Assembly (NCBI GenBank): GCA_964353405.1
Contig: CAYGWJ010000121.1
Location: 2,421 to 66,420, forward strand
DNA: 64,000 bases
Origin: an uncultured Anaerolineae bacterium
GTDB lineage: Bacteria > Chloroflexota > Anaerolineae > Fen-1058
Direction of reading: 5' to 3'
Below, piece after piece: positions 13,299 through 29,040 of this stretch. The position numbers and the translations under genes were made by a program. Every line of letters begins with the position of its first letter. Position 1 is the first letter of the stretch. Under the pieces are notes generated by a model that saw only the letters and a list, made by a program, of their open reading frames with translations, was not told where the DNA came from and searched no databases.

Positions 13299-13733
13299 TT
13301 ATTTGCTGGCCGGTGTCGGAGTGGGGAGTTGGTCTTCGTAACGAGTAGGACACTTGAGCAGCAAGTTGCTGGCGACAAAGGTCCCATCAGAGTTGAGCTT
13401 GCCCTCGGCAATCGCCTGGGCCTCGTGCTGCAACAGGTCCGGCTTGGGGCCGGTGTAGAGAATCTTGAGCGAGTCCACCTTGACCGTTGAGTTCAGCTCT
13501 TCGTGAGTGTCCACGATATTGAAGGACAGTCTGGAAGCCTGCGGGTTGTAGGCAATCGTGTCGCCCATCACAAAGCCGGATACGCGCAAGCTGCGGCCCG
13601 TCATGGCCTGCCCCTTGTCGCGTACCTCTTTGACTGTGAGGTAATACTGGGCCGAGCTGGAAATACTTGACACAATCAAATAGACTACCGCGGCTGCCAC
13701 CACAATTCCACCGATCCAAAACTTGGCGCGCAT
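13299..13733 (-). CDS. ccmE: Cytochrome c haem chaperone CcmE, Cys variant (CxxxY instead of HxxxY)
   Basis: The likely start is MRAKFW at 13733, preceded by an AGGAGG Shine-Dalgarno. The protein has a single N-terminal TM and an OB-fold sequence. The haem-binding motif reads LLLKCPTRYEDQ. Confidence 0.8.
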   Translation of the reverse strand: MRAKFWIGGIVVAAAVVYLIVSSISSSAQYYLTVKEVRDKGQAMTGRSLRVSGFVMGDTIAYNPQASRLSFNIVDTHEELNSTVKVDSLKILYTGPKPDLLQHEAQAIAEGKLNSDGTFVASNLLLKCPTRYEDQLPTPTPASK

Positions 13734-13862
13734 AAGCCTCCTGCTAATGTGACCCATCACTTGCCGCAAGTTGCGGAAATCACATTGACTATACCACATC
13801 GGCAAACCTGTGTCAAAATGCTATTGTGACGGTTGACATCCCGGCCAATCTGCCTAGTTCAA

Positions 13863-13975
13863 ATGGGGGAACACCCCCATAAACTACGCATAAACATGAT
13901 ATATGTCACATCTTGTCACGTCAAATGTCACTTGGAATAGTGAATTCCGGTGCTATAATGGGGGCATTCCCCCAT
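13863..13975. promoter_or_regulatory. Divergent control region with two palindromes and a sigma70-like promoter driving rightward transcription
   Basis: Palindrome ATGGGGGAACACCCCCAT at 13863-13880 and ATGGGGGCATTCCCCCAT at 13958-13975. The promoter is TTGGAA (13932-13937), a 16-nt spacer, then TATAAT (13954-13959). The second palindrome overlaps the -10 box. Three TGTCAC direct repeats lie at 13904, 13914 and 13926. Confidence 0.5.
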
Positions 13976-14241
13976 AGGCATGGGGGTAAACCACGTACGC
14001 ACACGTAGTTTACTCGGTTAGATTCCCTGCAAACTGGGGAAAGCAACCGGTCTGGTGGACGCGGGTTGCAAATTGATGATAAAGGTGGCAAAACGTATGA
14101 CAAGAGGTTTGCCAGTCGTATGTCATGTTGGCGACTAGCAAACCAAAGGCAAGCCGAGTTTCTACGTTTCGGGGCGAAAGTCGCCCCCCTTTGTCTTCCG
14201 CACCAAACTATTGATTCAACCTGAAAAGGAAGGAAAGAAAA

Positions 14242-16536
14242 ATGAGACGCTATGCACTACCAGTGGGGATCGCCCTGTGCGTCGTCGGCCTGCTCGTCGT
14301 CCTGGCGGCCTGCGCCACGCCCACGCCCCCCCCTCCGCAAATCGTCAAAGAGACGGTCGTCGTCACCAAGGTCGTCGAGCCGACCAAGGCGCCGGCCGTC
14401 GCCGCAACGCTCGACCTGACAGCAAGCAAAAAGTCGCCCACGCTGCCATTCCTGGCTGACTGGCAGAAAGCGGGCCACTCTGATCCCACCGCAGAAGCCT
14501 TCAACCACTGGCCAACGGGTGGCGTGCCCACTGACTGCGCCAAGTGCCATACCTCTGAGGGATACCGCGAATTCGTCACCACCGGCAAGATCGAGAAGCC
14601 GATCCAGAACAGCGGCAGCTTGATCGACTGTGTCGCCTGCCACAACAGCGGCACGATGGATAAGACCAGTGTAAAGTTCCCCTCTGGCGCGACACTCAAG
14701 AACCTTGGCGCCGAAGCCCGCTGTATGGAATGCCACCAGGGCCGCGAGTCCACAGTCAGCGTGAACAACGTCATCTCCAACACCTTCAAGCTCAAGGATG
14801 CGGACGATGACACGGTTGTGAAACCGCTCGTGACAACGGACGCCGCTGGCAAAACCGTCACCACGACCTTCGGCTTCCGCAACATCCACTATTTCGCGGC
14901 TGCAGCCACGCAATATGGCACCCTGGCCAAGGGCGGTTACGAATACAAAGGCCAGTCGTATGACAGCAAGTTCCAACATCCTGAGCCGTATGACACCTGT
15001 GTGGGCTGCCACAACCAGCACACGTTGGAGTTGAAGCTGAAGGAATGCGCCACCTGCCATACTGGCGTCACCAAAGTCGAGGACATCGCCAAGATCCGCA
15101 TGAACGGCTCGCTAATGGACTATGACGGCGACGGCAATGCGAAGGAAGGGATCGCCGAGGAGTTGGCGGGCCTGCAGGAAAAACTGCTCGCCGCCATCCA
15201 GGCGTATGCCAAGGAAGTCGGCAAGGCCGACATCGCCTACAGCTCAACGGCTTACCCGTACTTTTTGGCGGACAAGAATGGCAACGGCAAGGCCGATGCT
15301 GATGAGACGGGAGTGTACACCGCCTGGACCCCGCGTCTGCTGAAGGCTACCTACAACTACCAGGTCGCCAGCAAGGATCCTGGCAAGCTGGCGCACAACG
15401 CCAAGTACGTCATCCAGTTGATGCACGATTCGATCGCGGATCTGAACACCAAGCTGGCCAAGCCGGTGGACATCGCGAAGGCAGTACGCAATGATGCCGG
15501 CCACTTTGATGGCACCGCTATGGCGTTCCGCGATTGGGATGCGGAGGGCGAGGTTCCGGCGGGCTGCGCCAAGTGCCACAGCGCCAAGGGCCTGCCTGAA
15601 TTCCTGGAGAGCGGCGGCACAGTCGCTGTGACGGCCGCCGGCTCGATCGTGACGACCGGCGTCGGCCCACAGGAAACCGCCAACGGTTTCGCCTGCACCA
15701 CCTGCCACAGCGACCTGACCAAGTTCACGGTGCGCCCGGTGGTGAATGTGCCGTTCCCCAGCGGCAAGAGCCTCACCTTCAGCAAGGAGAAGGATGACAA
15801 GGGCGCGCTCAAGCCAGTGGCTGCCAACCTGTGCCTGGAATGCCACCAGGGCCGCCAGTCCACGGCCGCCGTCAATACCAGGATCAAGGGCATTGACGAA
15901 GACAAAGTGGATGCCAAGGCCGCCTTCGCCAATGTGCACTACTTTGCCGCGGGCGCCACGCTCTTCGGCGATGCTGCGCAGGTCGCCTACCAGTATGATG
16001 GCAAAAAGTACGCCGGCCAGAATGCGCATGCGCCTGGCTTCGACACCTGCACCGGCTGCCACAGCACGCACGAACTCGGGGTCAAGATGGACAAGTGCGT
16101 GACCTGCCATGCCGGCGTCAAGACGCCCCAAGACATCCGCATGAACGCCAAGGATTTCGATGGCGACAAGGATGTGAAAGAAGGCATCTCGGCCGAGGTG
16201 ATGGCGCTAGAAGACAAGCTGTACGCGGCGATCATTGACTACAGCAAGACACTCACCAAGACAGCGATCGCCTACAACTCGGGCGCCAATCCGTACTTCT
16301 TCGTTGACACGAATGGCGATGGCAAGGCCGATGCGAAGGAGGCCGTGAGCGCCAATCGCTGGGCGGATTGGACGCCGCGCCTTCTCAAGGCCGCCTACAA
16401 CTACCAGTACGTCCAGAAGGATCCGGGCGCCTTTGCGCACAACCCCAAGTACGCCATCCAGATCCTCTACGATGCGCTGGAGGATCTCGGCAAGAAGGTC
16501 AAGGTGAACATGACGGGCCTGGCGCGGCCAGAGTAA
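14242..16536 (+). CDS. Decahaem c-type cytochrome lipoprotein with internal two-fold duplication
   Basis: Lipobox LAAC. Ten CXXCH motifs: CAKCH, CVACH, CMECH, CVGCH, CATCH, CAKCH, CTTCH, CLECH, CTGCH and CVTCH. The two halves align (...NGNGKADADETGVYTAWTPRLLKATYNYQ... against ...NGDGKADAKEAVSANRWADWTPRLLKAAYNYQ...). Confidence 0.85.
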   Translation: MRRYALPVGIALCVVGLLVVLAACATPTPPPPQIVKETVVVTKVVEPTKAPAVAATLDLTASKKSPTLPFLADWQKAGHSDPTAEAFNHWPTGGVPTDCAKCHTSEGYREFVTTGKIEKPIQNSGSLIDCVACHNSGTMDKTSVKFPSGATLKNLGAEARCMECHQGRESTVSVNNVISNTFKLKDADDDTVVKPLVTTDAAGKTVTTTFGFRNIHYFAAAATQYGTLAKGGYEYKGQSYDSKFQHPEPYDTCVGCHNQHTLELKLKECATCHTGVTKVEDIAKIRMNGSLMDYDGDGNAKEGIAEELAGLQEKLLAAIQAYAKEVGKADIAYSSTAYPYFLADKNGNGKADADETGVYTAWTPRLLKATYNYQVASKDPGKLAHNAKYVIQLMHDSIADLNTKLAKPVDIAKAVRNDAGHFDGTAMAFRDWDAEGEVPAGCAKCHSAKGLPEFLESGGTVAVTAAGSIVTTGVGPQETANGFACTTCHSDLTKFTVRPVVNVPFPSGKSLTFSKEKDDKGALKPVAANLCLECHQGRQSTAAVNTRIKGIDEDKVDAKAAFANVHYFAAGATLFGDAAQVAYQYDGKKYAGQNAHAPGFDTCTGCHSTHELGVKMDKCVTCHAGVKTPQDIRMNAKDFDGDKDVKEGISAEVMALEDKLYAAIIDYSKTLTKTAIAYNSGANPYFFVDTNGDGKADAKEAVSANRWADWTPRLLKAAYNYQYVQKDPGAFAHNPKYAIQILYDALEDLGKKVKVNMTGLARPE

Positions 16537-16848
16537 CTATCTGGAGTCTCGCTAGGGGGTAGACACCCGCTTTCCAGAGACACGGCTGCTCTCGCTCAAG
16601 GACCTCACCGGTAGCCTGGCGGTGGGCGCAACCGAGATGAAGTAAGTTCGTTTTTCGGGTGGTAAGGCAAGACGGGCCGGGGCTTTGTCCGGCCCGTCTT
16701 CCGGCAAGTCAGTCGTAATCGGGCGACAAGGTCGGCGCAGTGTCGCCTACAACATTCATCCCAGTTCGGATCACGCACTCATCTTGGGCCAGAGACTCTT
16801 GTTCTCTCTTTCACTCTGGCGAATCAAACCGAACGTAAGGAGACCAAC

Positions 16849-18000
16849 ATGATGGGACGCACTCGACGTCACATCCCAATCAGTCTGCTCGTCGCACTGA
16901 TGGCATTGGCTATCGCCGCACTCGTGTTCAGCACGGCCTCGGCCAGCGGGGCGAACGGCCCGGTCGCTTTGCCGACCATGCCGCCCACGCCGACGGGCGC
17001 GGATAACCAAAAGTGCCTGGCCTGCCACTCCAATCCGGCCCAGCAGATGAAGGCCGCCAACGGAGAGATCATCTCGCTCTACGTTGATCCAGACGCTCTC
17101 AAGAGCTCGGTGCATGGCGCCAAGAATGTGGCCTGTGTCCAGTGCCATAGCAACCTCTCAGGCTATCCGCACCCGGAGTACAAGCCAGCCGACCGGCGGC
17201 AAGTAACACTTGATCTCTACCAAGCCTGTAAACAATGCCACGGCGACAACTATCAAAAGACGTTGGACAGCGTTCACCAGAAAGCACTCGCTTCGGGCAA
17301 CCGCCTGGGCGCGACCTGCGCCGACTGCCACGGCGCGCACGACGTCCGCCCGCCCGATCAGCCGCGCTGGCGCATCGCTCTGACGTGCAGCAAGTGCCAC
17401 GGTGCGATTTTTAACCAGTACAAGGACAGCGTGCATGGCTCGGCACTGCAACAGGACAACCCCGATGTGCCCAGTTGCGTGGACTGTCACGGCGTGCACA
17501 ACATTCCTGACCCGATGACGCAGGCCTTCCGATTAAAGTCACCCACAGAGATGTGCGGCAAGTGCCACACCGATGCCAAACGCATGAGCAAATACAACAT
17601 CTCCACCGCCGTGCTCAATACCTACGTGGCCGACTTTCATGGCACCACCACCACGCTCTTCAAGAAGCAATCGCCTGACCAGGTTACAAACAAGCCCGTC
17701 TGTTTTGACTGCCACGGCGTGCACGAGATTGCCAACACCAAAGACCCCAAGGGCGGCCTGGCCATCAAGACCAACATGCTCAAAGCCTGCCAAAAATGCC
17801 ACCCGGACGCCACGACCGAAACCTTTGCCGCTTCGTGGACGAGCCATTACGAGCCTTCCCCGACCAGGTACCCGGTCGTCTACTATATTGACCTGTTCTA
17901 CAAGATTCTGATTCCGGCCGTGCTGGGCTTTATGATCTTGATGGTGCTCCTGGATGCTTTCTGGCGCATTCGCAATCGTTTTGCGGGGAAGGAGATCTAG
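16849..18000 (+). CDS. Nonahaem c-type cytochrome with a C-terminal membrane anchor
   Basis: Signal peptide. Nine CXXCH motifs (CLACH, CVQCH, CKQCH, CADCH, CSKCH, CVDCH, CGKCH, CFDCH, CQKCH). C-terminal TM helix ILIPAVLGFMILMVLL. Confidence 0.85.
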   Translation: MMGRTRRHIPISLLVALMALAIAALVFSTASASGANGPVALPTMPPTPTGADNQKCLACHSNPAQQMKAANGEIISLYVDPDALKSSVHGAKNVACVQCHSNLSGYPHPEYKPADRRQVTLDLYQACKQCHGDNYQKTLDSVHQKALASGNRLGATCADCHGAHDVRPPDQPRWRIALTCSKCHGAIFNQYKDSVHGSALQQDNPDVPSCVDCHGVHNIPDPMTQAFRLKSPTEMCGKCHTDAKRMSKYNISTAVLNTYVADFHGTTTTLFKKQSPDQVTNKPVCFDCHGVHEIANTKDPKGGLAIKTNMLKACQKCHPDATTETFAASWTSHYEPSPTRYPVVYYIDLFYKILIPAVLGFMILMVLLDAFWRIRNRFAGKEI

Positions 18001-21781: not shown

Positions 21782-23743
21782 ATGAGCACTACCGCCCTGG
21801 GATACATCTACTTTTTCTACGGCCTCGCGTTTTTTGCGATGGGGCTGGCGGTGGTGCTGGAAGCGGGCCGGACCAGCGAGTTGCGGTTCGCGCACTCGAT
21901 GCCGTGGCTGGCGGCCTTTGGCCTGACCCATGGCTTGCACGAGTGGTTTGAAATGTTTGAGGTGATGGGGCAATTGCCCCCTGGCCTGCCGCTGGGAGCA
22001 ATTCACCTCATCCTCCTGGTTGTCTCGTTTGCCTGCCTGGCAGCGTTCGGAATCAGCCTGGGCCGGACCGAGAGCGCGGCGCCGTTGGGCGCCATGTGGC
22101 GAACGCTGGCGCTCATCGGGTTCAGCCTGGGCGGCATGATCGTGTTGCGGCTCTGGCTGCCGCAGTCCGATTGGTGGGGAGCCGCCAGCGTCTGGGCGCG
22201 TTACAGCCTGGGGATCGTCGGCGCCATCGTTACCAGTTGGTCGCTCATTTCTCAAGGGCAAGTCTTTGCCAGGCTGGGCATGGCGCATTTTGGGCGCGAC
22301 CTGATCTGGGCAGCGCTGGCCTTTGCCCTGTATGGCATCGTCGGCCAGATGTTTGTGTCCAAGAGCGCGCTGCCGCCTTCGAACTTTATCAACTCTGATT
22401 TGTTCCTGCGGCTGTTCGGTGCGCCTGTTCAGTTGTTCCGAGGCGCGATCGCGATGGTGCTGGCCGTCACCATCATCCGCGCGCTGCGCGTGTTCGAGAT
22501 CGAACGCACACAGCGACTGCGCGCAGCGGAGCTGACGGCCCAGGAAGCTGAGCGGCGCGTCCAACAGGAAACGGCGCACCTGAACCGCCAATTGCAGGAA
22601 GCGGTCAACGAGCTATCCATCCTGTTTGAAATGTCGCGCATCCTGGCGGCCACGCTGGACTGGCAGGCTGTGCTTCAACAAGCCGTCGTCAAGGTCGTTG
22701 ACCTGCTGCCCGCTCGCGCGGCGATGATCCTGCTGGAAACGGATCCGCCGGGAAGCTGCGCCGCGAGCACAGGCTTTTGCCGCGCAGAGTTGGCTGGCGC
22801 CGCCCAGAGCATAGGTCGGGCCGTCATCACCGCCAACGCCGATAACAACGAATTCGCTGTTCCGCCCGAGATGCGCGTGCTGGCTCCGATGATGGCCGTG
22901 CCTTTGCACCTTTCGGGCAAGCGCGGTCTCATCGGCAGCCTGGTCATTTGCGTGAGCGACGTGCACATCTTTGAACCCAAGCGGTCGCTATTGCTCACGC
23001 TGGGCCGTGAGCTGGCCATCGCCATCGAAAACGCCCGGCTTTACCAGCAAGTCCAAGAGCGCGAGATGGTGCGCGGCGAACTGCTGCGGCGTTCGGTGCA
23101 GGTTCAGGAAGAAGAGCGCAAGCGCATCGCCCGCGAGCTGCACGACGGCATCGGCCAGATCTTTACCGCGCTGGCGCTGGGGCTTTCGGGTGTAGAAGAA
23201 ACCATGCCGCGTGACCCGGCGCTGGCGCGCAAGCAAATCGGCAATCTCAAAGACTTGGCCGTTCGCGCCATCTCTGAGCTGCGTCAACTGGTGGCCGATC
23301 TGCGGCCCGCGCAGTTGGACGACCTGGGCCTGGCGCCCGCGCTCCACTGGCTGACCGACGAGTGGCGCGACCGGCTTCACATGGATGTGCGCGTTCAAAT
23401 TCTAGGCCAGCGCCGTCGCCTGTCGTCGGAAATGGAAACCGTGCTGTTTCGCATCACGCAAGAAGCGTTGACCAACGTCGCCAAGCACGCCAACGCGCAG
23501 CGCACCGCCGTCAAGCTGGCTTTTGGCGATGACCAGGTCGAGCTGGTCATCGAGGATAATGGCATCGGCATGACGCCGGAACAAATGTACCGCCGCCAGG
23601 TTCGCCATCAAGGCTGGGGACTGGCTGGCATCCAGGAACGCGCCGCTCTCGTCGGCGGCACATTCGATATTGACTCGGCGCCGGGGCGAGGCACCCGGTT
23701 GACCGTCCACATCCCACTTGGTGGCGAGGAGGCCGTTGCATGA
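21782..23743 (+). CDS. Polytopic sensor histidine kinase with GAF, HisKA_3 and HATPase_c domains (NarX/LiaS-type)
   Basis: The ATG at 21782 (MSTTALGYIYFFYG) opens a ~7-TM N-terminal sensor domain. A GAF-like region and the HisKA_3 H-box (RIARELHDGIGQ) follow. G-box: DNGIGM...GWGLAGIQERAALVGG. The ORF-track start at 21635 is a repeat artefact. Confidence 0.85.
   Translation: MSTTALGYIYFFYGLAFFAMGLAVVLEAGRTSELRFAHSMPWLAAFGLTHGLHEWFEMFEVMGQLPPGLPLGAIHLILLVVSFACLAAFGISLGRTESAAPLGAMWRTLALIGFSLGGMIVLRLWLPQSDWWGAASVWARYSLGIVGAIVTSWSLISQGQVFARLGMAHFGRDLIWAALAFALYGIVGQMFVSKSALPPSNFINSDLFLRLFGAPVQLFRGAIAMVLAVTIIRALRVFEIERTQRLRAAELTAQEAERRVQQETAHLNRQLQEAVNELSILFEMSRILAATLDWQAVLQQAVVKVVDLLPARAAMILLETDPPGSCAASTGFCRAELAGAAQSIGRAVITANADNNEFAVPPEMRVLAPMMAVPLHLSGKRGLIGSLVICVSDVHIFEPKRSLLLTLGRELAIAIENARLYQQVQEREMVRGELLRRSVQVQEEERKRIARELHDGIGQIFTALALGLSGVEETMPRDPALARKQIGNLKDLAVRAISELRQLVADLRPAQLDDLGLAPALHWLTDEWRDRLHMDVRVQILGQRRRLSSEMETVLFRITQEALTNVAKHANAQRTAVKLAFGDDQVELVIEDNGIGMTPEQMYRRQVRHQGWGLAGIQERAALVGGTFDIDSAPGRGTRLTVHIPLGGEEAVA
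22844..22861. promoter_or_regulatory. 18-bp element AACAACGAATTCGCTGTT, copy 2, inside the kinase coding sequence
   Basis: Exact match to copy 3. It encodes NNEFAV in the GAF region. Confidence 0.35.
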
Positions 23744-24411
23744 CGATCAAGATTGTGCTCGTGGACGATCACGAGATCGTGCGGGCGGGCCTGAGGATGC
23801 TGCTCAGCTCGCACTCGGACATTGAGATCATCGGCGAGGCTGAAAACGGCCAGCAGGCCTTGCAGCTCTGCCAAAAGAACCCGCCCGATGTCGTCATTAT
23901 GGACATCACCATGCCGGGCCTCAGTGGGCTTGAAGTCACGCGCCAGATCAAGCAGCAATGCCCCAACACGGCCGTGCTGGCGCTCACCATCCACGAAGGC
24001 GAGCAATACTTTTTCGAGATGCTCAACGCGGGCGCTTCCGGTTACGTCCCTAAACGCGCCGCGCCCACCGACCTGGTGAATGCCATCCACGCTGTGTATT
24101 CCGGCGAAGTGTACCTGCATCCAAGCGTCGCCAAGGCGCTCGTCAACGATTACATCCAACGTGTTCAGATGGGCTGGGAGCGCGCCAGCTACGACGGACT
24201 GACCGACCGCGAGCAGCAGGTCCTCAAGATGATTGCCGAAGGCATGATGAACAAAGAGATCGCCGAAAAGCTCTCGATCAGCGTGCGGACGGTGGAGCGG
24301 CATCGAGAGAACATTATGGCCAAGCTCAACCTGCACACGCGGGCCGAGCTGGTGCGCTATGCGGTAGACAAGGGACTGATTGACATCAGCAACAAGCCGC
24401 CTTCAGAGTAG
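23740..24411 (+). CDS. NarL/FixJ-family response regulator (REC plus LuxR-type HTH)
   Basis: REC domain sequence IVLVDDHEIVRAGLRMLL...VVIMDITMPGLSG...LALTIHEGEQ. LuxR HTH LTDREQQVLKMIAEGMMNKEIAEKLSISVRTVERHRENIMAKL. The gene overlaps the kinase stop. Confidence 0.9.
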   Translation: MTIKIVLVDDHEIVRAGLRMLLSSHSDIEIIGEAENGQQALQLCQKNPPDVVIMDITMPGLSGLEVTRQIKQQCPNTAVLALTIHEGEQYFFEMLNAGASGYVPKRAAPTDLVNAIHAVYSGEVYLHPSVAKALVNDYIQRVQMGWERASYDGLTDREQQVLKMIAEGMMNKEIAEKLSISVRTVERHRENIMAKLNLHTRAELVRYAVDKGLIDISNKPPSE

Positions 24412-24538
24412 CCCCTGGGAAGTCCCAGGGGTAGCACCGCACAAATCCAGGCGTCCCCACCCCACTCTAGGGATTTTCCCACATAGCGCGTTCGACCCGA
24501 TGTCGGCGGGATGGGTGGAAACACGCATCCCGGCCCCC

Positions 24539-24602: not shown

Positions 24603-24633
24603 AAGTTGGGACGTGTGCCCAATTGACGTGTCA
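24603..24633 (+). promoter_or_regulatory. 31-bp promoter-like element, copy 1, upstream of the second response regulator
   Basis: Sequence AAGTTGGG-N5-TGCCCAATTGACGTGTCA. It contains a TTGAC -35-like hexamer and a TGAC-NN-GTCA palindrome. Confidence 0.45.
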
Positions 24634-24806
24634 GACTCTTGCATGGTAGTCTGGTATCAGAGGAAAGCGGTTCGCCCTTTGATGCTGGACCTCGTCAAAG
24701 GAAACTTTGTAGGGCGGCTTTCCATAGCCGCCGCGCTGGGGGCAGGTATGGACGCGAAGCGTGCCCTACAAGGGGCTCTCCGACAGGGTTCTAGATCGAA
24801 TTTGGT

Positions 24807-25404
24807 ATGATGATCCGAGTCGTTCTGGTGGATGACCAGGAGATTGTGCGCGCCGGGCTGCGCCTGCTGCTCCAATCTCAGACAGACATGGACATCGTAG
24901 GCGAGGCCGGCGATGGCGCCGAGGCGCTCGCACTTTGCCGCCAGGTTTCTCCCCACGTTGTGATCACCACCATCGAACTGCCGGGCCTCAATGGTTTCGA
25001 GCTCGCGCGCAAGCTCAAAGCGCAAAGACCCACAGCACTTTTTCGAGATGATCAGTGCGGGCGCATCCGGCTACCTCCCCAAGCGCACTGCCACCGCTGA
25101 CCTGGTGACCGCCATCCGCACCGTCCATGCGGGTCAAATGTACATACATCCCACGGGTTATCACCAGCGCACCTACGCAAGCCATGAACGCCCCCGCCCC
25201 AACGACCTGGAGCCGCATGAACAGCTCGTCCTCGTCATGATTGCCCAAGGAGCGCAAAACAAGCAAATCGCGCTGCGGCTTGGGGTCAATGTGAGAACCG
25301 TGGCGCGCTATCGAGCGAATATCGAGAACAAGCTCAACCTGCACAGCCGGGCCGACCTGGTGCGCTATGCGGTGGACAAGGGCCTGGTGAGCGCGGCCCC
25401 CTAG
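24807..25404 (+). pseudogene. NarL-family response regulator paralog disrupted by an internal deletion and frameshift
   Basis: ORFs 24807..25100 and 24991..25404 lie in two different frames, and both align to the upstream regulator. The segment equivalent to NTAVLALTIHEGE is missing (about 41 nt; the conserved Thr of the REC domain is lost). The C-terminal LuxR HTH is intact. Confidence 0.55.
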
Positions 25405-25566: not shown

Positions 25567-25597
25567 AAGTTGGGTGGCCTGCCCAATTGACCTGTCA
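25567..25597 (+). promoter_or_regulatory. 31-bp promoter-like element, copy 2, upstream of the octahaem cytochrome operon
   Basis: AAGTTGGG-N5-TGCCCAATTGACCTGTCA. It is 26/31 identical to copy 1, with identical spacing. Confidence 0.45.
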
Positions 25598-25663
25598 TGG
25601 GGCAATGTGATACCTTTGTGTCAGCAGAACCAGGTGAATGGCCTACACACAAAGGAGAAGAAA

Positions 25664-28665: not shown

Positions 28666-29040
28666 ATGAACGCGCAAACAATCCAAGATATCTTTATAGT
28701 TGCTGGGATGTTCTTTCTGCGCATTGGTCTGCCGCTTCTCGTCGTCATGGGCCTGGGGTATCTGATTCAACGCTGGCTGGAGCCTAAAGCCGTGCATGAG
28801 CAATTCGAGGGAATTGTACGCAGCACACACGAACGAGCGGCGGCTCCGGTGACGCGACAGTACGCCCTATCGGGCGAGGCGGCCAACAAGTATGCAGTCT
28901 GCACGACCAACCTGCAAACGGATATTCCGTGTTGGCTCGCCCGCCAGATCGCCGGTCAGACATTGCCGGAAGGCTGCGCCACTTGTAAAGTGCGCACGCA
29001 GATCAACGCCGACGCGATGGACGTGAAACGCGCCAGCTAA
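28666..29040 (+). CDS. Hypothetical small membrane-anchored protein with 4 Cys
   Basis: N-terminal TM, then Cys residues in CTTN...PCW...GCATCK. It is the last gene of the NrfD-type operon, immediately before the terminator. Confidence 0.4.
   Translation: MNAQTIQDIFIVAGMFFLRIGLPLLVVMGLGYLIQRWLEPKAVHEQFEGIVRSTHERAAAPVTRQYALSGEAANKYAVCTTNLQTDIPCWLARQIAGQTLPEGCATCKVRTQINADAMDVKRAS

Follow-up and report, generated by a model that had tools for sequence, protein, structure and literature searches.

Candidate palindromic operators in a conserved divergent promoter region between cytochrome c maturation and multihaem cytochrome operons of an uncultured Chloroflexota bacterium

Main

We analysed a 64-kb stretch of DNA from an uncultured Chloroflexota bacterium (the window, by which we mean the whole stretch), and in particular the intergenic region that separates the minus-strand gene ccmE from a plus-strand gene encoding a decahaem cytochrome. 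On the minus strand, ccmE is followed by genes for CcmF, CcmH, a thioredoxin-like protein, a c-type cytochrome, CcmA, CcmB, a CcmC-like protein and a DsbD-like protein. On the plus strand, the decahaem gene is followed by genes for a 9-haem cytochrome, a cytochrome b/c fusion and a 13-haem cytochrome, and the last two genes of the string encode a HisKA_3 histidine kinase and a NarL-type response regulator (Table 1). An earlier note on this DNA had described the region as a divergent control region with twin palindromes, an operator placed over a promoter and a long structured leader; the flanking genes that it claimed were borne out by Pfam for ccmE and by the CXXCH count for the cytochrome. 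Here we compare the window with approximately 175 related loci, labelled Lnnn. The best genome matches of the decahaem protein (76-79% identity) were metagenome-assembled genomes of Anaerolineales/Thermoflexales, and metagenome contigs matched it at 91-94% identity. An identical copy of the intergenic region was found on a single Logan contig, by look-up with the window's own CcmE, so there was no strain-level variation to compare.

Divergent promoters between ccmE and the decahaem gene

From its motifs and their conservation, the region 13734-14241 is a conserved bidirectional promoter region of the sigma-70 type, with predicted start sites. For the plus strand, the earlier note had paired a -35 hexamer TTGGAA (13932-13937) with a -10 hexamer TATAAT (13954-13959), and both were read directly at these positions; a TG at 13951-13952 makes the -10 element an extended one, and the spacer is 16 bp. 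The inferred start of this promoter is at approximately 13966, with the ATG at 14242 approximately 276 nucleotides (nt) away, and a promoter scan gave no further plus-strand match upstream of 14242. Absent from the earlier note was a strong minus-strand promoter, with an inferred start at approximately 13781, that is predicted to drive the ccmEFHG...ABC operon for cytochrome c maturation (System I). The inferred starts of the two back-to-back promoters lie approximately 185 bp apart.

Table 1 Features of the control region and associated genes and sites in the window
Feature	Position	Strand	Basis or remark
ccmE	13733..13302	minus	Pfam 5e-24
ccmE-operon promoter, TTGACA-17-TGgTATAGT	13816..13788	minus	11/12 consensus positions
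Box 1 (pal1), ATGGGGGAACACCCCCAT, 18-bp 7-4-7 palindrome	13863-13880	none	direct reading
Second palindrome, CATGA-TATATG-TCACA, Rex/CRP type	13895-13910	none	centre about -63
Third TGTCAC repeat, abutting the -35 hexamer, 22 nt past the right half of the second palindrome	13926..13931	plus	conservation
Cytochrome-operon promoter, TTGGAA-16-TGcTATAAT	13932..13959	plus	10/12 consensus positions plus TG
Box 2 (pal2), ATGGGGGCATTCCCCCAT, 18-bp 7-4-7 palindrome	13958-13975	none	direct reading
Native 5′ leader, from the operon's lost first gene	13966-14080	plus	aligns with L162/L163/L174/L175
Adjacent half-box, left heptamer ATGGGGG (13980-13986) perfect, right half degenerate	13980-13997	none	inner inverted repeat in eight lineages
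Pseudogene scar, decayed ribosome-binding site AAAGGTGG and first codons	14081-14145	plus	alignment
Terminator-like hairpin, GGGGCGA-AAG-TCGCCCC and CCTTTGTCTT	14171-14197	plus	terminator scan
Decahaem cytochrome gene, lipoprotein-type, 764 amino acids	14242-16533	plus	10 CXXCH motifs
HisKA_3 histidine kinase, multi-pass membrane protein	open reading frame from 21635, probable start near 21785	plus	Pfam
NarL-family response regulator, receiver and GerE domains	23740-24408	plus	Pfam
Further box, ATGGGGCAGTCACCCAAT, 18.3 bits	28579-28596	none	upstream of small membrane-protein gene 28666-29040

Orthologous ccmE-upstream regions were gathered by blastn with the intergenic DNA, by a CcmE homologue search and by contig look-ups. 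CcmE identity to the window was 94% for L162/L163, 88% for L174/L175, 85% for L164, 82% for L166-169, and 80% for L170; L165 and L171/L172 were also among these regions, and L173 (68%) was the most distant. When blastn was run over all loci, only 13787-13988 (approximately 205 nt) was conserved, at 72% identity in L015 and 69% in L087. Within the ccmE promoter, the blocks GACTATACCACA and GTGTCAAAA were invariant across all orthologous regions, and the extended -10 element TGnTATAAT of the cytochrome promoter was retained in eight lineages, namely those with a multihaem cytochrome gene opposite ccmE. In the alignments, the -10 and -35 blocks of the two promoters were invariant, as were those of the boxes. 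The description of the region as a divergent control region thus held, with both promoters and the boxes described below kept in orthologous regions at approximately 70% DNA identity.

Palindromic boxes at fixed promoter positions

The two 18-bp palindromes of the earlier note were present exactly at the coordinates given there, 95 bp apart (start to start), and both have a perfect 7-4-7 organisation. Box 1 is centred at -94.5 from the inferred cytochrome-operon start and at about -90.5 from the inferred ccmE start. Box 2 is centred at +1.5 and covers the last two bases of the -10 hexamer together with the inferred start site. A third half-site, ATGGGGG at 13980-13986, had escaped the earlier note; this half-site and the right half of box 2 together make up the inverted repeat CCCCCAT-AGGC-ATGGGGG (13969-13986), which as RNA folds with -11.8 kcal/mol.

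Judged from its counts, the 18-bp 7-4-7 palindrome is not a chance occurrence. The exact 14-base pattern is found at two sites only in the 64 kb, whereas 0.28 would be expected even with two mismatches, and ATGGGG-N6-CCCCAT has eight exact copies in 1.39 Mb (the window and related loci), where 20 block shuffles gave 0.0. A symmetrised matrix, trained on some of the very sites that it scored, gave five window matches scoring 12 bits or more (0.62 expected), four of them intergenic and adjoining respiratory or regulator genes. In 2.1 Mb of loci it gave 30 matches scoring 16 bits or more, compared with 2.5 in shuffles. Across the sites the heptamers are retained and the spacers are A/T-rich and variable. 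If the palindromes were a dispersed repeat, similar to a repetitive extragenic palindrome or a miniature inverted-repeat transposable element, or chance G/C palindromes without a regulatory role, their short G/C-rich form would be that of many repeat families, and in keeping with this the looser pattern GGGGG-N4-CCCCC with one mismatch allowed was not enriched in the window. Such an origin has next to no probability in our judgement, given the orthologous positions and fixed promoter spacing in surrounding DNA that is only approximately 70% identical, the absence of the exact motif from shuffles and the mere five matrix matches in 64 kb, nearly all intergenic beside respiratory genes.

Box 1 was kept in all eight cytochrome-linked lineages, with its centre at -94.5 or -95.5 and scores of 18.6-26.4 bits. 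Box 2 was strong (approximately 25-26 bits) in the window (25.9), L174/L175 and L015 (25.2), and weakened in L162 (ATGAGGG, 20.7 bits) and L164 (16.5 bits). An inverted repeat CCCAT-N4/5-ATGGGG directly follows the -10 element in all eight lineages. The operator-over-promoter layout proposed earlier was therefore recovered as an overlap of box 2 with the conserved extended -10 element and the inferred start; this overlap is with a predicted start, and three lineages (L087/L165/L166) carry a strong box, ATGGGGGATACTACCCAT, at +24.5 instead. In L170, which lacks the cytochrome operon and has an unrelated gene as neighbour, the -10 element and box 2 are gone and box 1 is decayed; L173 has no boxes in its ccmE-upstream region. 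Both loci are, by this comparison, natural controls.

The motif search beyond the control region that the earlier note had called for showed the palindrome recurring at other promoters as well as in orthologous regions. In the window, a further box (Table 1) is centred at about -43 from a start inferred via the -10-like hexamer TAAACT, and precedes a gene for a Cys-rich protein of 124 amino acids with four cysteines and an N-terminal membrane helix, for which Pfam gave no match. Together with a shared CCCAATAGA context, the box also precedes the homologous small gene in L015 (12661) and L064 (254). As box and gene have been kept together in distant relatives, the gene is probably a core member of the regulon. 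In L054/L066, an array CCCCAT-N6-ATGGGG-N6-CCCCAT lies approximately 60 bp upstream of the -10 element TGnTAGACT of another cytochrome gene. Long hairpins of tandem heptamers TACGCAC/TACGCAA (L064, 110-180 and 590-660) flank the box-bearing promoter region of L064 and resemble a genome-specific repeat.

Inverted copies flanking the palindromes had also been described, and TAAACTACG (13880-13888) and CGTAGTTTA (14004-14012) were both read directly. The copies are thus present, but the AAACTACG/CGTAGTTT pair shows no co-variation in the closest relatives, and we rejected it as a conserved long-range pair: one arm is altered without compensation in L174/L175, and the pair is missing from the L015 and L087 lineages. 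The 11-mer AAACTACGCAT that follows box 1 (13880-13890) is also found between two adjacent boxes of L077 (approximately 1982-1992), a locus whose decahaem protein is just 47% identical to that of the window; near-copies of it, TAAACCACGT and ACGTAGTTTAC, lie at 13987-14013, and the 11-mer is not conserved in the closest lineages.

A NarL-type regulator as candidate binding protein

The full-length response regulator at the end of the gene string has VraR, NarL and DevR as its nearest solved relatives, and its DNA-binding domain is nearest to EsrB (expect value (E) 1.6e-15) and SsrB among solved structures. Published sites of such regulators resemble the boxes. SsrB recognises an 18-bp 7-4-7 palindrome, in which one half can be degenerate and the spacer can vary, and has two copies of its site upstream of its own operon (PMC2837388). 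The boxes of DevR are 18 bp long, and each half has a GGG core; a strong primary box stands in tandem with secondary boxes, in which sometimes just one half is kept, and four such boxes share one divergent intergenic region (PMC3177182). NreC binds GC-rich palindromes at nitrate-respiration promoters (PMC8139620). Because they share this geometry, the window boxes fit the expectation for the NarL family, and the half-box at 13980-13997 fits, by analogy, the pattern of primary plus secondary boxes.

The regulator was followed across 147 non-redundant decahaem-anchored loci, with at least 55% identity as the threshold for an orthologue. A box of at least 16 bits was present in 10 of the 23 loci with a regulator orthologue as opposed to 7 of the 124 without (odds ratio 12.9, p=1.2e-5); with the matrix-training loci removed, the odds ratio was 7.5 (p=0.0055). 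The earlier suggestion of the adjacent NarL-type regulator as a candidate is therefore plausible, as the motif recurs preferentially where its orthologue occurs, and we treat the protein as a putative binder. Inverted heptamers with a variable spacer, placement at conserved respiratory promoters and a co-distributed regulator gene, as in operators of the NarL/FixJ type, were all found. We put the probability at roughly 60% that the region is a divergent sigma-70-type promoter pair whose G-rich boxes are operators, most probably of the NarL-family regulator encoded in the same gene string.

Several observations weigh against this assignment. The co-occurrence is a correlation that could stem from shared ancestry of the loci and not from a regulator paired with its site. 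Upstream of the separately transcribed kinase-regulator units of distant loci (L054, L066, L014, L016, L024 and L044), a scan for autoregulatory boxes gave none that reached 8 bits. At the start site, the +1.5 box is degenerate in L087/L165/L166 (7.9-11.6 bits) and only the inner halves are good in L164, such that the invariance adjoining the start is that of the inner inverted repeat, which an RNA hairpin explains equally well. In box 1 of L087/L165, moreover, a symmetric G-to-T / C-to-A change keeps the arms complementary, a pairing that a protein dimer does not need.

The boxes might instead be operators of another transcription factor, encoded elsewhere, with the NarL-type neighbour acting at other sites, possibly GTCAC. 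This would account for the absence of boxes before separately transcribed kinase-regulator units and for the 7 of 124 regulator-less loci that still have a box; the window encodes no other DNA-binding regulator, but 64 kb is a small part of a genome. On the other side stand the locus-level association with the regulator orthologue and the fit of the 18-bp 7-4-7 geometry and G-rich heptamer to relatives of SsrB, DevR and NreC. Several of the regulator-less box loci, furthermore, are short contigs (L055, L064, L012) beyond whose ends a regulator may lie. We regard a factor encoded elsewhere as possible, if rather unlikely.

Near the candidate regulator gene, a second NarL-type regulator follows the first in split form at 24807-25404, with a receiver part (24807-25100) and a GerE part (24991-25404) in overlapping frames, which suggests a frameshifted pseudogene or an error of assembly. 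Weaker box-like sequences lie inside the kinase gene (ATGGGGCAATTGCCCCCT, 21965-21982, 18.3 bits; present in L085 too) and between the two regulator genes (ATGGGTGGAAACACGCAT, 24511-24528, 13.6 bits). The 19-mer TGCCCAATTGAC(G/C)TGTCA(G/T) is found at 24617-24635 and 25580-25598, that is, upstream of the second regulator gene and of a gene set for a 7-haem cytochrome, an FeS protein and an NrfD-type protein; this repeat is possibly a shared promoter or operator.

A possible RNA stem-loop at the start site

The inner inverted repeat could act as RNA, with CCCCCAU-loop-AUGGGGG forming a stem-loop 3 nt from the 5′ end that would block 5′-end-dependent decay or tune translation. The outer halves and box 1 would then be separate or incidental, and the stem-loop could be an alternative to the operators or an additional layer. 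The inner repeat is the sole part of the start cluster present in all eight lineages; its loops vary (AGGC, GCGAA, ACGAT, GCGAT, AAGGA, TTTAT) and its stems are kept. Single-sequence and alignment folds alike have it as their first helix, with the folding energy given above, and L087, L164 and L166 have a box 2 whose outer half is degenerate. However, no compensatory changes were seen, the stem being invariant or losing basal pairs (L015, L166), and the z-scores of short G/C hairpins are only about -2. An RNA hairpin also leaves unexplained the position of box 1 at -95, as no predicted promoter precedes box 1, the box at -43, the L054/L066 boxes approximately 60 nt before a -10-like hexamer and the co-occurrence with the regulator gene. 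An RNA feature at the start site is, in our estimate, a live alternative but the unlikelier one.

A second palindrome upstream of the -35 hexamer

Between box 1 and the cytochrome promoter, the earlier note had listed three TGTCAC direct repeats. They are present (13904, 13914 and 13926) and form the sole cluster of three within 28 nt, in a window that holds 36 TGTCAC sequences. The third repeat is invariant, but the second is not conserved and the first is half of a palindrome that the note had not described, being the right arm of CATGA-N6-TCACA. In relatives, this second palindrome has the consensus TGTGAC-W4-GTCACA at a fixed position of -63/-64; it is perfect in L164 (TGTGACATATGTCACA), L162, L174/L175 and L087, carries a single mismatch in the window and has been lost from L166-169. 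The third repeat, as ATGTCAC, was kept in the control regions of the 11 lineages examined, including L170, and L173 has GTGTCAC only, within a non-alignable region. In L013 the palindrome is followed after 22-23 nt by another GTCAC, matching the spacing in the window.

Across the loci, GTGAY-N4-RTCAC has 51 copies, some of them coding, against 7.3 in shuffles; the intergenic copies have A/T spacers and were found with or without the regulator gene. A palindrome of the TGTGAC-W4-GTCACA type lies approximately 43 bp upstream of the inferred ccmE start in L054/L066. Among the scanned open reading frames of the window there was no Rex or CRP/FNR gene. Most simply, the second palindrome would be a second, independent input, read by a Rex- or CRP/FNR-like factor encoded elsewhere. 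The term multi-input node, used in the earlier note, is fair for this region because its conserved palindromes belong to two or more distinct motifs.

GTGAC-W4-GTCAC was also seen by ccm or cytochrome promoters in L054 (19190-19250), L066 (12340-12400) and L013 (7006 and 15546), as well as approximately 150 nt upstream of the decahaem orthologue in L155-L161. Its recurrence in distant Chloroflexota looks like a widespread Rex/CRP-like respiratory regulon.

The long leader contains a gene scar

The earlier note had taken the approximately 275 nt before the decahaem gene for a structured leader that may include a cis-acting RNA element. Alignment with relatives indicates that this leader, of approximately 276 nt, is a native leader of approximately 115 nt followed by the scar of a deleted gene and a junction segment, and not a designed RNA element. 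L174/L175 have the same control region, a leader of approximately 110 nt and an intact cytochrome gene beginning AAAGGAGGTGAA..ATGACAAGAAAAGGTTTGCTGGTC, an arrangement that is, on this alignment, the ancestral state for the lineage of the window. The scar, which was aligned with the intact multihaem cytochrome gene of L174/L175 and L171/L015 and corresponds to its ribosome-binding site and the beginning of its signal peptide, has substitutions and indels; it retains an ATG at 14097, and its frame stops at 14136-14138 after 13 codons. L162/L163 hold a longer decayed remnant of the lost cytochrome gene. In the lineage of the window, the decahaem gene has replaced the lost cytochrome at the head of the operon. 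In L015, L087 and L082, by comparison, the decahaem gene follows the regulator gene and a different cytochrome comes after the control region. Because gene order differs in this way, the window leader showed no similarity to the upstream regions of other decahaem orthologues, including the regulator-to-cytochrome spacers of L015, L082 and L087.

The structural elements named in the earlier note fared unequally. The ATGACA...TGTCAT inverted repeats are located inside the decayed cytochrome-gene remnant and do not stand as leader structure. The 7-bp hairpin is present, at 14171-14187 and not at 14172-14188; this stem-loop folds with -13.3 kcal/mol (z -2.66), and its segment, a lineage-specific junction, had no counterpart in any of the approximately 175 related loci. 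A riboswitch, or a terminator/antiterminator attenuator built around this hairpin, would agree with a whole-leader single-sequence fold somewhat better than shuffles (z = -2.13; 6 of 200 shuffles equally good), with a hairpin and U-containing tail that pass the terminator scan, and with the long upstream regions that decahaem orthologues in other lineages have too. Yet the tail CCUUUGUCUU is a poor U-tract, 14081-14145 is a pseudogene remnant, and Rfam gave no family over the 64 kb at gathering thresholds and none even at E<=10 in 13600-14400. The covariation check proposed earlier found none: an alignment fold of the native leader, over five sequences that share its first approximately 115 nt, gave 29 pairs with a covariation term of +0.44, and 0 of the 29 were compensatory, at the low power of five similar sequences. 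Finally, no predicted promoter separates the hairpin from the start codon, and the gene would hence be silenced if the terminator were efficient. We take a riboswitch or attenuator to be weakly refuted already and very improbable, and the claim of a structured leader with a cis-acting RNA was not upheld.

A gene for a small leader protein of 58 amino acids is called in L162/L163, but the frame in the window stops after 13 codons, and the 58-amino-acid frame is spurious because it begins at the ATGGGGG half-site. L015 has a hairpin, GGGGCGACC-CTCAT-GGTCGCCC, directly after its regulator stop codon, and the window hairpin at 14171 might be such a post-regulator terminator in a transplanted position. 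However, the two are alike in no more than a G/C stem, they differ in their distances, and the window's own regulator gene is followed by a different hairpin. Elsewhere, a decahaem-upstream region of approximately 370 nt is shared by L001 (3030-3404), L003 (790-1158) and L083 (5610-5982) at 67-84% identity; it begins at a promoter-like site TTGACA...GATAAAAGAT, is unrelated in sequence to the window leader and may be a conserved long leader. As a caution, a long 'structured leader' can be a mere scar of gene deletion.

Within the operon, a scan of 16400-16900 gave no promoter match. A G+C-rich stem-loop of 12 bp without a U-tract (AAGACGGGCCGG-GGCTTTGT-CCGGCCCGTCTT, 16669-16702) follows the decahaem gene, and no promoter match was found between it and the next cytochrome gene (16849).

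Discussion

Under the NarL-family operator assignment, one promoter of the divergent pair would drive the System I ccm operon and the other the string of multihaem cytochrome, cytochrome b, kinase and regulator genes. The boxes would serve as operators for a dimeric helix-turn-helix protein, with regulator dimers on box 1 and on the start-site cluster. Occupancy at +1.5 or +24.5 would block initiation or escape of RNA polymerase, and we infer from these positions that the start-site box probably represses. As the operon seems to be transcribed together with the kinase and regulator genes, such repression would amount to negative feedback. The fixed distance of 95-96 bp (nine helical turns) allows cooperative looping, by which box 1 and the start-site box could be bridged, possibly touching the ccm promoter. 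The box near -43 at the small-protein promoter is in an activator position, and the regulator is therefore probably dual. A Rex/CRP-like factor would add a second signal through the palindrome at about -63 and the half-site at -35. A more elaborate version, in which the start cluster is dual-coded as DNA heptamers for tandem regulator dimers and as a 5′ mRNA stem-loop that determines mRNA stability, while looping between boxes shuts the cytochrome promoter and modulates the ccm promoter, is distinctly doubtful; if true, it would couple the capacity for haem attachment to cytochrome supply.

Multihaem cytochrome clusters of uncultured Anaerolineae/Thermoflexales have been invoked for metal reduction and extracellular electron transfer, and a limited literature search surfaced no study on their regulation. 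Our analysis offers an 18-bp operator motif, a candidate two-component system and a widespread Rex/CRP-like motif as leads, with a regulon sketch that comprises the cytochrome operon, possibly the ccm operon and the small Cys-rich membrane protein. Metagenome-assembled genomes can be searched with the motif for respiratory genes that are co-regulated, and the leads are testable without cultivation.

The combination of inputs recalls the FNR plus NarL/NarP promoters of E. coli (narG, nir and nrf, and frdA and dmsA as repressed cases), where a NarL-type regulator likewise acts with a second, palindrome-binding redox regulator. NarL represses through heptamers that overlap or lie past the start site and activates from upstream. 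The sites themselves differ: E. coli NarL has TACYYMT heptamers, arranged as 7-2-7 or otherwise, and the FNR box is TTGAT-N4-ATCAA at -41.5, unlike TGTGAC-W4-GTCACA at about -63. For that second palindrome the Rex operator, given in PMC2883068 as TTGTGAA-W4-TTCACAA, is similar in its 6-4-6 geometry, its A/T spacer and five of six bases per half. The palindrome also resembles CRP-type sites. Rex regulates respiratory and fermentative genes in Gram-positive lineages. In contrast to the Rex operator, the second palindrome has C/G and not A/T beside the spacer, and its centre at -63 is unlike that of a usual repressor site.

For the boxes, SsrB of Salmonella pathogenicity island 2 shares the arrangement of heptamer, 4 bp and heptamer, with the spacer as the most variable part and sites with one good heptamer occurring naturally. 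The heptamer of the window, ATGGGGG, is G-rich, whereas that of Salmonella is A/T-rich and unrelated; SsrB is mainly an activator and anti-silencer that works from upstream sites, whereas one window box covers the start site. The two systems are in different phyla, and the pairing of regulator and box in the window is a putative one. DevR/DosR of Mycobacterium tuberculosis, which controls respiratory adaptation (PMC3177182), is also of the NarL subfamily, and the halves of its 18-bp palindrome have their GGG core where the halves of the window boxes have theirs. As in the window, a strong box stands in tandem with a degenerate one, and boxes are common to a divergent pair, which for DevR is narK2-Rv1738. 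Dev boxes activate, with the proximal box adjoining the -35 element. The window differs in its half-site (TGGGGG, as against GGGACT in the Dev box), in a proximal box at +1.5 or +24.5 and in full boxes that are 95 bp apart and not adjacent. Set beside these systems, the candidate operator motif is previously undescribed but of a kind that is familiar, and it comes from a phylum that has been little studied; as such it is useful and testable, if not surprising.

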